This document shows, one piece after another, positions 37,316 through 41,540 of a stretch of DNA of 64,000 bases; position 1 is the first letter of the stretch; the number at the start of each line of letters is the position of its first letter. A program made the translations under genes and the position numbers. This DNA is from Vulcanimicrobiota bacterium (lineage in GTDB: Bacteria; Vulcanimicrobiota; Vulcanimicrobiia; Vulcanimicrobiales; Vulcanimicrobiaceae). Location: the NCBI GenBank assembly GCA_963786515.1, contig CAWAZM010000017.1:17832-81831 (forward strand), read 5' to 3'. Under the pieces are notes generated by a model. That model searched no databases, was not told the origin of the DNA, and saw only the letters and a program-made list of their open reading frames with translations.

Positions 37316-37843
37316 ATGCTACGAGGCAATTCGCTCGACGTCAACCGGCGCGCCGCAATCGACGCGGGCATCGCTCTGCGCGGCGGCGTTGCGCACTGGC
37401 GCGTCTCGCCGGACGTCAACCGCGCGTACGCGTTGGTCGAATTTCCCGGCGATGGAGATACGCCGGCAATCGAAACCGATGCTTCGTTCACCGAGTCTGC
37501 GCCCATCATTGCATTGGCTGTTTACCCTGCCGTCGCCGAAGCCTTGCCGTCGCTGATCGAGGTGCTGGACGGACCGGGGCGTCCGTCGGGGGTTCTCGGA
37601 TGCAGTGCCTCGGGTGGTGCGGCCGTCCTCGAGTGGGACCTCGACCGAACGCCTGCTACCTTGGTGCTCGATCTGATCGACACCGAACTCGACCGCTTTC
37701 ACAGCGGCCGCCGCACCGAGTTGCTGACGCCGCTCACCGAAACGTGGCTGGCCAAGATCGCAGCCGACGGGCTGCATTGCCCCGAGATTGCGGCGGATCG
37801 TATTCTCGAGACGCTCGTAACCAAGGCTGGTCTCGATGTTTGA
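37316..37843 (+). CDS. Hypothetical protein, first gene of the cdaA operon
   Basis: 175-aa ORF whose stop overlaps the cdaA ATG by 8 nt. The 5-prime part of ORF 36863-37843 is antisense shadow of rsgA. Confidence 0.45.
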   Translation: MLRGNSLDVNRRAAIDAGIALRGGVAHWRVSPDVNRAYALVEFPGDGDTPAIETDASFTESAPIIALAVYPAVAEALPSLIEVLDGPGRPSGVLGCSASGGAAVLEWDLDRTPATLVLDLIDTELDRFHSGRRTELLTPLTETWLAKIAADGLHCPEIAADRILETLVTKAGLDV

Positions 37844-38729
37844 GTCGCTACGATCGTATATCGGCATCACCGATCTCCTCGACATCGCCGTCACCGGCGT
37901 GTTGGTGTACTATTTGCTGCTGCTCATTCGCGGTACGCGAGCGGTGCAAATTCTCATGGGCATCATCGTGCTCTTGGCGATTCTCGGTATCGCCAACGTC
38001 TTGCACTTATATCTCCTCGTTACGATTCTGCAGCTGGTGGTCGTCGGCGCCGCCGTCACGATTCCGATCGTCTTTCAACCCGAGTTGCGGCGCGCGCTCG
38101 AGCAGATCGGCCGCGGCGGCGTGTTTCGAATCGACGCCGACGACCCGCTGTCGCGCGTCATCACGCGACCCGAAGATCGCTCGCTCGCACTCCTCGCTCG
38201 TGCTGCATTTCTGCTGTCGCGCAACAAAATCGGCGCGCTGATCGCGGTCGAACAACACAGCGGCCTCAAAGAATTCTGCGAAACCGGAACGCAGCTCAAC
38301 GCGGAATTGACGGTCGAACTGTTACTGACGATCTTCACGCCTCGCTCGCCGCTCCACGACGGCGCGGTGATCGTGCGCGACAACCGTATCATCGCAGCCG
38401 GCTGCTTTTTACCGCTGGCCGAGCATTCGTTTACCGCGCGCGTCGGCACGCGCCACCGAGCGGCGATCGGGTTGAGCGAACAAACCGACGCCGTCGTCAT
38501 CATCGTTTCCGAGGAGAGCGGCGGCGTATCGATCGCGCGTGACGGCAAACTCACGCGTCCGGTCGAAGAAGAACAGCGCCTGACAAAAATGTTGATGGCC
38601 GTCACCCGCCCGGCACGCCGCGATCGCCGCTCGCCCAACGATCTCGTTTCACATTTACGTTCGCGCCTGTCGTCGCGCCGCGTGCGCGAGGCCCCACATG
38701 CAGATCATCCGCAAGAACTTCACTCTTAA
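37836..38729 (+). CDS. cdaA: Diadenylate cyclase, membrane-bound CdaA type
   Basis: Three N-terminal TM helices, then a DAC domain: GALIAVE ... PLHDGAVIV ... GTRHRAAIGLSEQTDAVVIIVSEESG. Confidence 0.9.
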   Translation: MFESLRSYIGITDLLDIAVTGVLVYYLLLLIRGTRAVQILMGIIVLLAILGIANVLHLYLLVTILQLVVVGAAVTIPIVFQPELRRALEQIGRGGVFRIDADDPLSRVITRPEDRSLALLARAAFLLSRNKIGALIAVEQHSGLKEFCETGTQLNAELTVELLLTIFTPRSPLHDGAVIVRDNRIIAAGCFLPLAEHSFTARVGTRHRAAIGLSEQTDAVVIIVSEESGGVSIARDGKLTRPVEEEQRLTKMLMAVTRPARRDRRSPNDLVSHLRSRLSSRRVREAPHADHPQELHS

Positions 38730-39370
38730 AGTTCTGGCGCTGACGCTGGCGATCGTCGGCTGGGCGTACGTGCGATTCGCGACCAATCCGGTCGTGGCGA
38801 CCGCACGTTTCGACCAGCAAATGTCGGTACCGATCACGAGCGTAAACCTTACCGCCGGGTACGTCGCGCATTTTACCGACCGCGAAGCCGTGGTCACCGT
38901 CGCGCCCCGGCGCGGCGAAGCCGCGATCAAACCCGAAGAAATTAAGGCCGTGCTGGATCTCGCCGGCAAAGGCGCGGGCGTCTACAACGTGCCGGTCGCG
39001 TTGGTCGCGCCGCAGATCGTCGTGCAGAGTTTGAGCCCGGCGTCGGTGACCCTGACGATCGAAAAGATCGAGTCGCGCGACTTTCCCTTGGCCGTCCACT
39101 ACGTCGGCGATCTGCAAGAACGTCGTGGTTGCCGGGACGCAGCTCAAGCCGTCGATCGTCGCGATACAGGGCACGACCACCGCGCTGGAACAAGTCGCGG
39201 CGGTGCACGCCGACATCACCCTGCCCGAGCAAGCCCGTTCGGTCGACGAAATGGTCAGGCCGGTGCCGATCAACGCGGCCGGAGCCGAAGTGCTCGGCCT
39301 GCAGGTCGCGCCCGACCTGGTGCGCGTTCGCCTGCGGCTGACGCCCGGCACCGGGCAACCGCCTCGATGA
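38698..39370 (+). pseudogene. cdaR: CdaR (YbbR-domain) regulator of CdaA, one frame break near 39105-39125
   Basis: TM helix plus YbbR-like repeats in ORF 38698-39471 up to LAVHYVGDLQ. It then continues as VVVAGTQLKPSIVAIQGTT... in ORF 39125-39370. Stop overlaps the glmM ATG. Confidence 0.7.
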
Positions 39371-40713
39371 GCCGGCTGTTCGGCACCGACGGCATCCGCG
39401 GCGTCGCCAATGAGTACCTAACGCCCGAACTGGCCTTCGCCGTCGGGCGGCCGCCGCAACCGTGCTGGTAGCCGAAGCCGACGGCCGGCCGATGGTGGTC
39501 GGTCGAGACACCCGCTGCTCGGGGACCATGCTCGAAGCCGCTATTGTGGCCGGCATTACGTCGGCCGGCCGCGATACGGTGTCCCTCGGCATCGTTCCGA
39601 CGCCCGCCGTCGCGTGCGTCACGCGGCACGAAGGCGCGGCCGCGGGCGTCATGATTAGCGCCTCGCATAATCCGGTGCCCGACAACGGTATCAAGTTCTT
39701 TGGTGCCGACGGATTCAAACTGAGCGACGCCCTGGAAGACACGATCGAGGCCGCCATGACGGCCGGCACGGGCGCACGCCCGACCGGAACCGGCGTCGGC
39801 GTTGCGCGAATCGCCGCCAATTTAGGGCGGTTATACTACGAGCAGTTATACGACGGCGCGGCCGACCTGAGCGGACTGCGCGTCATCGTGGACTGCGCGT
39901 ATGGCGCGGCGTATGCGATCGCGCCCTATGCGTTGCGCAAGCTCGGCGCCGACGTGATCGAACTGCATTGCGAAAACGACGGTACGCGCATCAACGTCAA
40001 CTGCGGGGCGACGCACATGGAGTCGCTCGAAGCCGCCGTACGCGAACGAATCGCCGCGGGCGAGCGAAACGTGGTGGGCGTCGCGTTCGACGGCGATGCC
40101 GATCGCGCGTTGTTCGTCGATGAAGAAGGCTGTCGTTTAAGCGGCGATCACGTGATGTACGCGCTCGCCGACGGCGTTGCACGATGCGGGAACGCTACCC
40201 GGCGACACGATCGTCGGAACGGTCATGAGCAATATCGGTTTCGAACGCGCGCTGCAGGCGCGCGGCATCGCGCTCGAGCGCACCGCCGTCGGCGACCGCT
40301 ACGTGTTGGAACGCATGCGCGAAGGCGGGTTCGTCTTGGGCGGCGAGCAGTCCGGACACATCATCGATTTGCTCACCAATACCACCGGCGACGGCCCGAT
40401 GACCGCCGTTACGCTGTTCGGCATTGCCGCGCGCGCCGGCGTTCGTTTGCACGATCTCGCGCGCGAAGTCGTAATCGCGCCGCAAGTTTTGGTGAACGTC
40501 AAGACACGTTCCAAAGACGTGCTGCAGCGCGAGGCCGTTCGCCGTGCGATCCAAGAAGCCGAGGCGCGCTTAGGGAACGACGGCCGGCTCTTAGTGCGTC
40601 CGTCCGGAACCGAGCCGCTGGTTCGAGTGATGGCCGAGGGTAGCGAGCGAGCGCTCGTGGACGATGTAGTCGCCAGGGTCGTCAGTGTGATTGAGAGGGA
40701 GATTAAAGCCTAG
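39367..40713 (+). pseudogene. glmM: Phosphoglucosamine mutase split by two frame breaks (about 39444-39455 and 40165-40180)
   Basis: MSRLFGTDGIRGVANEYLTPELAFAVGR, then LVAEADGRPMVVGRDTR...ISASHNPVPDNGIKFF...FDGDADR, then GDTIVGTVMSNIGFE...GGEQSGHII...RPSGTEPLVRVMAEG. The three collinear pieces cover a full-length GlmM. Confidence 0.9.
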
Positions 40714-40779
40714 ACAGAAACCTAACCAGCGTCATCGTCCGGCAAGTAACAGCGCCGGTTCGAGTGACGTTACGCCTGC

Positions 40780-40912
40780 ACAAGATCACTGAATCGGGTC
40801 CCAGCGAGGATCCGAGCGGGGGACTCTCTGGTGGGGTGAATGAGCCGGTCGGCTCTAGGGCGACTCTTTCCGTCCGAACCCGTCAACTAACCTCGCAAGT
40901 GTCGTCAAAGAG
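40780..40912 (+). promoter_or_regulatory. c-di-AMP riboswitch (ydaO-yuaA class) in the leader of the NlpC/P60 gene
   Basis: Conserved cores are readable: GAGCGGGGGAC, GGGGTGAAT, TAGGGCGAC, CCGAACCCGTCAACTAACCTCGCAAG. The SD AAAGAGAGG follows immediately. No U-tract terminator is present. Confidence 0.8.
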
Positions 40913-40925
40913 AGGTATCTATTTC

Positions 40926-41540
40926 TTGCGTCACGCGTTAGCTGCCGGAGCGTTCGCCCTTTCGATTGCCGCTACAGGCACGTTCGCTCAAGCTCATACC
41001 CAACAAAATTCCCCCACGATCGCGTTCACCGCACCGTCCACGACGACGAGCCAGCGTGCCGTCAGTCCAGACGTTGCTGAGTGGACCCAGCGCCTGGTGA
41101 TCACCACACCGGCGCGTCATTCGGCCAGCTTTGGCCGGTTCGCGGGTGGCATCTTAGCCCGCACCTCCAAGATGGCAACCCTGCTCACGCACAGCGCCCT
41201 GCGCTTTTTGGGAACGCCGTACGTCTTCGGCGGAACCACCGCAGCCGGTTTCGATTGCTCGGCATTCGTGCAGCACGTGTTCGGCATGGCCGGCATCGCG
41301 TTGCCGCGCACGGCCGATGCACAATACGACGTCGGCAAACCGGCCGTCGGCGGACCGCGCCCGGGCGATCTCGTGTTCTTTCAGACGTATACCGAAGGCG
41401 TGTCGCACGTCGGCATCTATCTCGGAAACGGCAAGTTCGTACACGCCAGCTCGAGCCACGGCGTCATGGTGAGCCACCTTTCGGAATCGTATTGGTCCTC
41501 GCGCTATCTCGGCGCGAAACGTCTCGTCGCGACGCGTTAG
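40926..41540 (+). CDS. NlpC/P60 family peptidoglycan endopeptidase, secreted
   Basis: TTG at 40926 lies 10 nt after the AAGAGAGG SD. Signal peptide LRHALAAGAFALSIAATGTFAQA. Catalytic FDCSAFVQHVF ... SHVGIYLGNGKFVHA. Confidence 0.85.
   Translation: MRHALAAGAFALSIAATGTFAQAHTQQNSPTIAFTAPSTTTSQRAVSPDVAEWTQRLVITTPARHSASFGRFAGGILARTSKMATLLTHSALRFLGTPYVFGGTTAAGFDCSAFVQHVFGMAGIALPRTADAQYDVGKPAVGGPRPGDLVFFQTYTEGVSHVGIYLGNGKFVHASSSHGVMVSHLSESYWSSRYLGAKRLVATR

Follow-up and report, generated by a model that had tools for sequence, protein, structure and literature searches.

Does an RNA that senses cyclic di-AMP (c-di-AMP) stand directly behind the genes that make this messenger, and what would it do to the cell-wall hydrolase gene that it precedes? 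The question arose from a 64,000-nucleotide (nt) stretch of a Vulcanimicrobiota bacterium genome (contig CAWAZM010000017.1, positions 17,832 to 81,831; hereafter the window), in which a first-pass annotation had placed a ydaO-yuaA-type leader between the genes cdaA (diadenylate cyclase), cdaR and glmM (phosphoglucosamine mutase) and a gene for a secreted NlpC/P60 endopeptidase. Window positions 40777-40917 were confirmed as a genuine member of the ydaO-class c-di-AMP riboswitch family. We weigh below how this element might act on the hydrolase gene, translational repression by the ligand being a reading to which we assign about an even chance.

A c-di-AMP riboswitch behind the cyclase operon

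Scanning the whole window against Rfam 15 with cmscan gave two matches at gathering level, a tRNA at 41598-41669 and RF00379 (c-di-AMP/ydaO/yuaA riboswitch) at 40777-40917 on the plus strand. The RF00379 match covers model positions 1-134 of 134 and scores 85.1 bits (E 2.2e-18) against a gathering score of 38 bits, which is far beyond chance and bears out the class assignment that had been made by eye. The four cores on which that assignment rested were all found in place (GAGCGGGGGAC at 40814, GGGGTGAAT at 40833, TAGGGCGAC at 40856 and CCGAACCCGTCAACTAACCTCGCAAG at 40874), with AAAGAGAGG at 40907 and the TTG start codon at 40926. The leader had been described as beginning about 67 nt after the glmM stop; the match in fact starts 63 nt past it (TAG, 40711-40713), with helix P1 from 40787. 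The single-stranded conserved cores GAGCGGGGGA, GGGGUGAAU, UAGGGC and CCGAACCCGUCAGCUAACC are all present, and the one core deviation is an A at 40886 in place of the conserved G at RF00379 model position 104 (GUCAGCUAACC). The genome also carries a diadenylate cyclase gene, cdaA (product TIGR00159 233 bits), and as this gene is intact the ligand can be made. The gene adjacent to the riboswitch encodes a cell-wall NlpC/P60 endopeptidase, and association of c-di-AMP riboswitches with genes of cell-wall, osmotic or K+ regulons has been reviewed (PMC7266159).

A search with CdaA that covered a single genome of each GTDB species gave 80 loci, all from Eremiobacterota/Vulcanimicrobiota metagenome assemblies, the closest relatives being Ca. 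Tumulicola with 97% CdaA identity and ~91% DNA identity. In 7/7 relatives scanned with Rfam the riboswitch occupies the syntenic position (74-89 bits) with a tRNA behind it. Our own covariance model, built from these Rfam-tested relatives, detected exactly one copy each in the window and in 71 loci (72/72 informative sources), the contigs of the nine loci that gave no match all ending before the expected position. The riboswitch lies past the C-terminus of GlmM in 72/72, and an NlpC/P60 ortholog starts a few bases past it in 70/72, the contigs of the other two loci (L043 and L063) ending inside the riboswitch. In 58 of 60 loci a tRNA-Gln(UUG) gene comes next in the same orientation (the remaining two may end too early), and rsgA lies divergently upstream in 79. 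The conserved block reads rsgA (minus strand), then orfX-cdaA-cdaR-glmM-[riboswitch]-nlpC/P60-tRNA-Gln, where orfX is a conserved gene described below. The adjacency of riboswitch and cdaA-cdaR-glmM, which had been noticed in the window, is real and is kept in 71/71 informative relatives. Since the unrelated rsgA and tRNA-Gln genes are syntenic as well, linkage alone is not proof of selection for coupling between sensor and synthase. Three of the records (L009, L042 and L044) are titled Acidoferrum/Acidiferrales (Acidobacteriota), yet their locus is of the Eremiobacterota type, down to orfX and the conserved flank 5′ of the aptamer, which suggests mislabelling or mis-binning.

The aptamer folds into P1 (40787-90/40898-901), P2 (40795-801/40808-14), P3 (40816-21/40891-96), P5 (40834-36/40879-81), P6 (40842-46/40851-55) and P7 (40858-61/40872-75), all on the plus strand. 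Among 70 distinct aptamer sequences, 99.2% of pair cells hold standard pairs and 12 of the 29 pairs change on both sides, with compensatory changes in P2, P3, P6 and P7, in an alignment that was fitted to the model and so favours it, and in which P1 and P5 are nearly invariant. None of 500 shuffles paired as well, and slid partners were at most 52% paired. Compensatory changes thus preserve the helices among genomes with CdaA identities of only 58-97%, which indicates ongoing selection.

Beyond the helices, the P7 loop (CUCUUU, 40864-40869) is complementary to the 3′ tail (AAAGAG, 40907-40912), and the resulting pseudoknot duplex, with an energy of -6.2 kcal/mol, overlaps with its 3′ strand the 5′ edge of the Shine-Dalgarno (SD) region. 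We infer its register from the sequence of the crystallised 4QLM construct as quoted in PMC5393176, in which the P7 loop ACUCCUU is complementary to the tail AAGGAG; the Rfam consensus shows the same pairing (loop cucUuu, tail aaaGaG). Each of the six core pairs is retained in 27-32 of the 32 distinct loop/tail combinations, with covariation at one extension pair (A-U in 6, U-A in 3). At only 23% of loci did 10 or fewer out of 200 composition shuffles pair as well.

The hydrolase start region and the direction of control

The gene downstream of the aptamer (40926-41540, plus strand) starts with TTG, and its product matches PF00877 with 117.6 bits over profile positions 1-105 of 105. By inspection of its sequence, the product begins with a signal peptide (MRHALAAGAFALSIAATGTFAQA). 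Among solved structures, the catalytic domain of B. subtilis LytE (8i2f, E 5.7e-31) is the closest, followed by MepS/Spr and CwlO, and the alignment with the LytE catalytic domain runs through GFDCS and SHVGIY...FVHA, which presumably hold the catalytic Cys and His, as in MepS and LytE. The predicted product is a secreted LytE/CwlO/MepS-like NlpC/P60 (C40) endopeptidase.

The SD region, likewise read from the sequence, is GAGAGGU (40910-40916, plus strand; GAGGAG in most relatives) and lies 10 nt upstream of the TTG. It begins inside the Rfam model, starting where the 3′ strand of the pseudoknot ends with an overlap of 1-3 nt. The start codon is the weak TTG in 70/70 loci and the surrounding UUUCUUGCGUCA is nearly invariant. 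Phylum-wide, the TTG together with the next CGU (Arg) hardly varies (window 40926-40937), and CGU makes up only ~15% of Arg codons (30/206) in sampled genes of the window. Between 40777 and 41000 there is no stretch of four or more T, and the terminator scan returned no terminator-like site between aptamer and start codon. The first-pass annotation was thus correct that the SD and TTG start of the hydrolase gene follow the riboswitch directly with no U-tract terminator, and its suggestion of translational control is the natural reading of a missing terminator combined with an SD in the aptamer 3′ tail. This suggestion also has a precedent in the nlpC riboswitch of C. glutamicum, which lacks a terminator, for which a CTCC-GGAG pseudoknot has been proposed, and at which high c-di-AMP lowers the reporter protein and not its mRNA (PMC9960051). 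The other riboswitches reviewed there, from B. subtilis and S. coelicolor rpfA, likewise respond negatively to c-di-AMP (PMC9960051).

On this basis we propose that the riboswitch controls translation initiation of the endopeptidase and that the ligand lowers translation (OFF), a proposal that stands at roughly equal chances of being right and wrong. Made by the adjacent CdaA, c-di-AMP would bind the aptamer and lock P1 and the pseudoknot between P7 loop and tail. The folded 130-nt aptamer would then sit flush against the ribosome-binding site, with the 3′ strand of the pseudoknot running into the SD, and the pyrimidine-rich internal loop between P3 and P5 might help by pairing with the SD. 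Translation of the hydrolase would fall while transcription continued into the tRNA-Gln gene; the position of that gene, downstream on the same strand with no intervening terminator in the window, would fit a control that spares transcription. As to the internal loop, the window clade has CUCUCU, which matches its SD GAGAGG (duplex -7.4 kcal/mol, vs -3.6 kcal/mol with the consensus SD), and L031 has UCCCU, which matches its SD GAGGGG (-6.8 vs -3.4 kcal/mol). It is suggestive that the P3-P5 loop changed to match an altered SD core in two lineages.

Several observations weigh against repression by this route. As a general anti-SD element the P3-P5 loop had to be rejected, for its phylum-wide mean pairing energy with the SD is -4.19 kcal/mol vs -4.31 kcal/mol in composition-preserving shuffles. 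The SD core (GAGGU in the window, GGAG in relatives) stays outside the pseudoknot, and any occlusion of the SD would hence be steric or partial and not a full pairing. The A in place of consensus G104 (window 40886) is shared by all 70 Eremiobacterota aptamers. Finally, a predicted hairpin at 40899-40934 on the plus strand (minimum free energy (MFE) -10.7 kcal/mol, z -3.1, 2/200 shuffles as good) would bury the start codon and could not form together with P1 or the pseudoknot, an arrangement expected of an ON switch.

This hairpin is the basis of the strongest alternative, a translational ON switch in which c-di-AMP would free the start codon and the SD core, so that the hydrolase would be made at high c-di-AMP; we regard it as unlikely, though it deserves serious weight. 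With no ligand bound, the P1 3′ strand and the tail (GUG.CGU..AAGAGA) would pair with UUUCUU-GCG-CAC and bury part of the SD and the whole TTG; with ligand bound, the shared bases would be drawn into P1 and the pseudoknot. In this hairpin every base of the TTG is paired, and the final three bases of the P1 3′ strand are taken up together with the pseudoknot strand; as these bases also belong to P1 and the pseudoknot, hairpin and ligand-bound fold are mutually exclusive. An RNAalifold consensus of 17 relatives gives the same hairpin pairs, displacing P1. At least 2 nt of the start codon are paired in the local MFE structure in 62/70 loci, and 37/70 fold a start-region hairpin at -6 kcal/mol or lower. 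When aptamer and pseudoknot are imposed, the first two bases of the start codon are unpaired with P 0.97-0.98, compared with 0.02-0.13 in the free ensemble. The SD core that the pseudoknot leaves unpaired and the conservation of UUUCUUGCGUCA around the start fit an ON switch as well.

Against activation by the ligand stands the behaviour of the characterised c-di-AMP riboswitches, which repress, nlpC included (PMC9960051). The hairpin itself is moreover insecure, for not one of its pairs shows a compensatory change, and outside the close clade of the window it is no better than dinucleotide shuffles (phylum mean over the 70 loci -6.2 kcal/mol, mean z -0.44, with 5/70 below -2). It is missing from ~8 divergent loci in which aptamer, SD and TTG are all retained, and its 3′ strand is coding sequence, which may by itself explain conservation. 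We know of no activating c-di-AMP riboswitch. That the window holds the first ON-type member of the class, placed in the tail of an orfX-cdaA-cdaR-glmM mRNA and acting by ligand-driven dismantling of a TTG-hiding hairpin, is a claim that we consider improbable. If true, it would change the view of c-di-AMP riboswitches as repressors only. Production of the LytE-like enzyme would then be restricted to times of high c-di-AMP, as signalled by the cyclase from the same transcript, giving a hard-wired feed-forward from messenger synthesis through precursor supply to peptidoglycan cleavage in a diderm phylum.

The transcription unit and its genes

Repression of translation by c-di-AMP, the reading that we prefer, leaves it to be asked from which transcript the hydrolase is made. 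The spacer between the glmM stop and the riboswitch is 9-215 nt long across relatives, and in five of them it is at most 27 nt, which leaves no room there for a separate promoter outside glmM. A scan for sigma-70-like promoters on the plus strand of 37200-41800 found none, although it may not suit this phylum, and reading the spacers by eye for sigma-70 and sigma-54 (TGGCAC-N5-TTGC) elements gave off-spacing matches only, in a few relatives. On the plus strand from the glmM stop to the end of tRNA-Gln no terminator-like site was found, weak matches further upstream falling inside coding sequence. The tRNA-Gln(UUG) gene itself (41598-41669, plus strand; ARAGORN and Rfam) lies 57 nt past the nlpC/P60 stop, and the first convincing terminator-like site follows just past it (41681-41703, plus strand), a 10-bp GC-rich stem and then TTTTGCGTTC, which together span 41681-41713. 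As this is the only convincing one, tRNA-Gln may be the last gene of the transcription unit. It had been claimed that no strong terminator separates glmM from the riboswitch; that holds for canonical terminators, with the qualification that the spacer contains a stable GC-rich hairpin that has no U-tract (40728-40771, plus strand; MFE -20.5 kcal/mol, z -1.9) and that the terminator scan does not call. Differently-sequenced hairpins occupy the same place in relatives (z -4.3 in L007 and -3.5 in L009). Co-transcription of the riboswitch and nlpC/P60 with the cyclase operon is plausible on these sequence features, and precursor supply and wall cleavage may, as the first-pass annotation proposed, be coupled through c-di-AMP, a coupling that we infer only from the arrangement.

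Those same spacer features bear on a further alternative, which we consider improbable, namely that the main effect of the riboswitch is on the synthesis or the stability of RNA, by Rho-dependent termination inside nlpC or by RNase cleavage, or that it fine-tunes a unit with its own promoter that is insulated by the spacer hairpin. The hairpins in the window and its relatives could be non-canonical terminators or processing sites. Directly upstream of P1, moreover, a 16-nt flank (TACGCCTGCACAAGAT, 40771-40786, plus strand) is conserved in ~22 loci spanning distant relatives while the remaining spacer varies; it is not a recognisable promoter, yet such a block could mark a promoter or a 5′ end. 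Regulation of S. coelicolor rpfA, which reportedly has no canonical terminator, is Rho-independent and works by a mechanism described as unclear, offers a further parallel (PMC9960051). This alternative is weakened by the missing intrinsic terminator and T-run downstream of the aptamer, by the SD and start codon at the aptamer edge, which are typical of translational platforms, by the spacers of at most 27 nt between glmM stop and Rfam match, and by the negative promoter scan. That the element is a conserved relic that does not bind c-di-AMP, or binds a related ligand, owing to the phylum-wide G-to-A core change is very improbable, given a score more than twice the gathering threshold, the otherwise intact cores, the compensatory changes in its helices and a cdaA gene in every locus.

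Two other candidate elements in the spacer were dismissed. A long-range helix between TACGCCTGCACAAGAT and the start region has -16.4 kcal/mol in the window, with a z of -0.43 against dinucleotide shuffles and a mean z of -0.08 over 70 loci, and L003 breaks it with no compensation. Scanned with Rfam at E up to 1-10, the longer spacers of relatives yielded nothing beyond chance, neither a glutamine-riboswitch-like element nor any other known RNA; RNAalifold supports only a 4-bp conserved hairpin there. A motif, GGAGGGCG-N11-YGCCGAAGCG, does occur in the glmM-riboswitch spacer of 32/70 relatives (e.g. L045:6979-7086 and L061:12927-13034) and not in that of the window, and in the 23 of these with long spacers ~60 nt of semi-conserved sequence follow it.

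Upstream of the riboswitch, the classic cdaA-cdaR-glmM operon that had been described stands as to gene order, with the amendments that a fourth gene leads it and that cdaR and glmM are frameshifted in the window. Position 37316, from which the region had been described, is not the start of cdaA; it is the ATG of a separate gene, orfX (37316-37843, plus strand), which encodes a conserved protein of 175 amino acids and whose stop overlaps the cdaA start (ATGTTTGA). orfX lies directly upstream of cdaA in 77/80 loci. Its product has no Pfam, NCBIfam or PDB sequence match and falls among 111 protein clusters, none of them functionally named ('hypothetical protein' where named) and with taxon-bearing source names that are all Eremiobacterota except for one 'Acidoferrales' label. 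An AlphaFold 2 model computed with an alignment (predicted local distance difference test (pLDDT) 84) shows two predicted ferredoxin/ACT-like repeats and C-terminal helices, for which no significant PDB match was found (best E 3.6e-3, template-modelling (TM) score <0.5). The orfX product may be a lineage-specific partner of the cyclase. The membrane diadenylate cyclase gene cdaA (37836-38729, plus strand) is intact; its product scores 233.3 bits against TIGR00159 (cut-off 188.8) and contains PF02457 DAC (144 bits) and the N-terminal membrane domain PF19293 CdaA_N.

The genes cdaR and glmM follow with overlapping stop and start codons. The YbbR-type cdaR (38698-39370, plus strand; located by three-frame translation) has its frame broken by an extra G at 39114, and glmM (39367-40713, plus strand) carries its PGM_PMM domains I-II and III-IV in two frames, with one base missing from a G run at 39449 and an extra C at 40168. 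Both orthologs are intact in L002 and L082; in L002 the 223-residue CdaR matches PF07949 YbbR with 27.7 bits (cut-off 22.3) and GlmM matches TIGR01455 with 519 bits (cut-off 447.6). The indels were judged against three relatives with 91-92% identity to the window (L001, L002 and L082), two of them short-read assemblies; those at 39114, 39449 and 40168 are absent from all three and hence specific to the window, and no further uncompensated coding indel was seen in ~13 kb aligned to L002. Pseudogenisation was considered and rejected, since synonymous to nonsynonymous changes on the window branch number 13:1 in cdaR and 26:5 in glmM, purifying ratios like those of the intact relatives that do not support decay. 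The indels are probably sequence or assembly errors, or very recent events, to judge from the sequence comparison. All three cluster in cdaR and glmM, cdaA and nlpC/P60 being intact. L001, to judge by its contig naming and size probably a long-read assembly, shows many single-base coding indels relative to both the window and L002 opposite window positions 42381-44700, for which reason frameshifts in such public genomes are not to be read as biology.

Comparison with known systems

Riboswitch class, target gene family and probable translational mode were known before, and it is the conserved placement of the sensor behind the cyclase operon in Eremiobacterota that is apparently unreported, as we did not find it in the searchable literature. 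The arrangement had been called unusual for a diderm. The term is justified, as the phylum's one cultured representative possesses a lipopolysaccharide-bearing outer membrane (PMC9758169). NCBI, for its part, places Eremiobacterota in Bacillati. Because c-di-AMP signalling is common in Bacillati lineages, the setting is less unusual than had been implied. The findings extend a well-studied riboswitch class to a little-known, mostly uncultured diderm soil phylum, in which the sensor RNA is fixed beside the operon for ligand synthesis. Sensor and hydrolase may form, with cyclase, regulator and precursor enzyme, a compact module by which c-di-AMP balances wall synthesis against cleavage, and the ~70 natural variants could serve to dissect a terminator-less translational control that has so far been supported, indirectly, in Corynebacterium only.

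Compared with the cdaA-cdaR-glmM(-glmS) operon of Firmicutes, the window has the same order of cdaA, cdaR (YbbR) and glmM with overlapping stop and start codons, and differs in its leading orfX, its short cdaR (223 residues) and the riboswitch and peptidoglycan hydrolase gene that come after glmM. In B. subtilis glmM is followed by glmS, which is preceded by a cis-regulatory RNA, the glmS ribozyme, whereas glmS of the window lies elsewhere (61442-63310, minus strand). There it is unlinked to glmM, encodes a GATase and two SIS domains, and adjoins genes for RNase PH and an MlaE/ABC/MlaD cluster; the Rfam scan of the window reported no glmS ribozyme. The MlaE match near glmS is truncated, covering profile positions 2-143 of 212, and lies in the same open frame as an ABC ATPase domain; a fusion or another frame problem could account for this.

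As to the RNA itself, the ydaO/kimA aptamer of B. subtilis and the crystallised Thermoanaerobacter aptamers (RF00379; 4QLM/4QLN, PMC5393176) share with the window their helices, their cores and the pseudoknot between P7 loop and 3′ tail. The window aptamer differs from them in a longer P2, one A fewer before GGGGUGA (40833) and the A for G at 40886. The B. subtilis ydaO/kimA riboswitch acts by transcription termination in the control of a K+ transporter (PMC9960051), in contrast to the window riboswitch, which has no terminator. Were the hairpin over the start codon to prove functional and the ligand to activate, the layout would resemble that of the add adenine riboswitch of Vibrio vulnificus, with the P1 3′ strand in a stem that buries SD and start. 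The add element is a translational ON switch whose P1 3′ strand is shared with the repressor stem; it belongs to another aptamer class with another ligand, and the ON layout is in our case a prediction.

The closest parallel to translational repression in the window is RSnlpC of C. glutamicum (upstream of nlpC, cg2402), where a ydaO-class aptamer likewise stands directly 5′ of an NlpC/P60 peptidase gene with no canonical terminator, and where the evidence points to translation and a pseudoknot between an aptamer pyrimidine stretch and the ribosome-binding site has been proposed (PMC9960051). The two differ in the source of the ligand, which comes in C. glutamicum from DisA encoded elsewhere and would come in the window from the adjacent CdaA, and in their host, C. 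glutamicum being a monoderm actinobacterium, unlike Eremiobacterota. The proposed pseudoknot of RSnlpC contains GGAG, whereas the conserved one of the window (UCUUUC/GAAAGA) ends at the SD edge, and to this the window adds a conserved TTG start and a competing predicted hairpin over the start codon.

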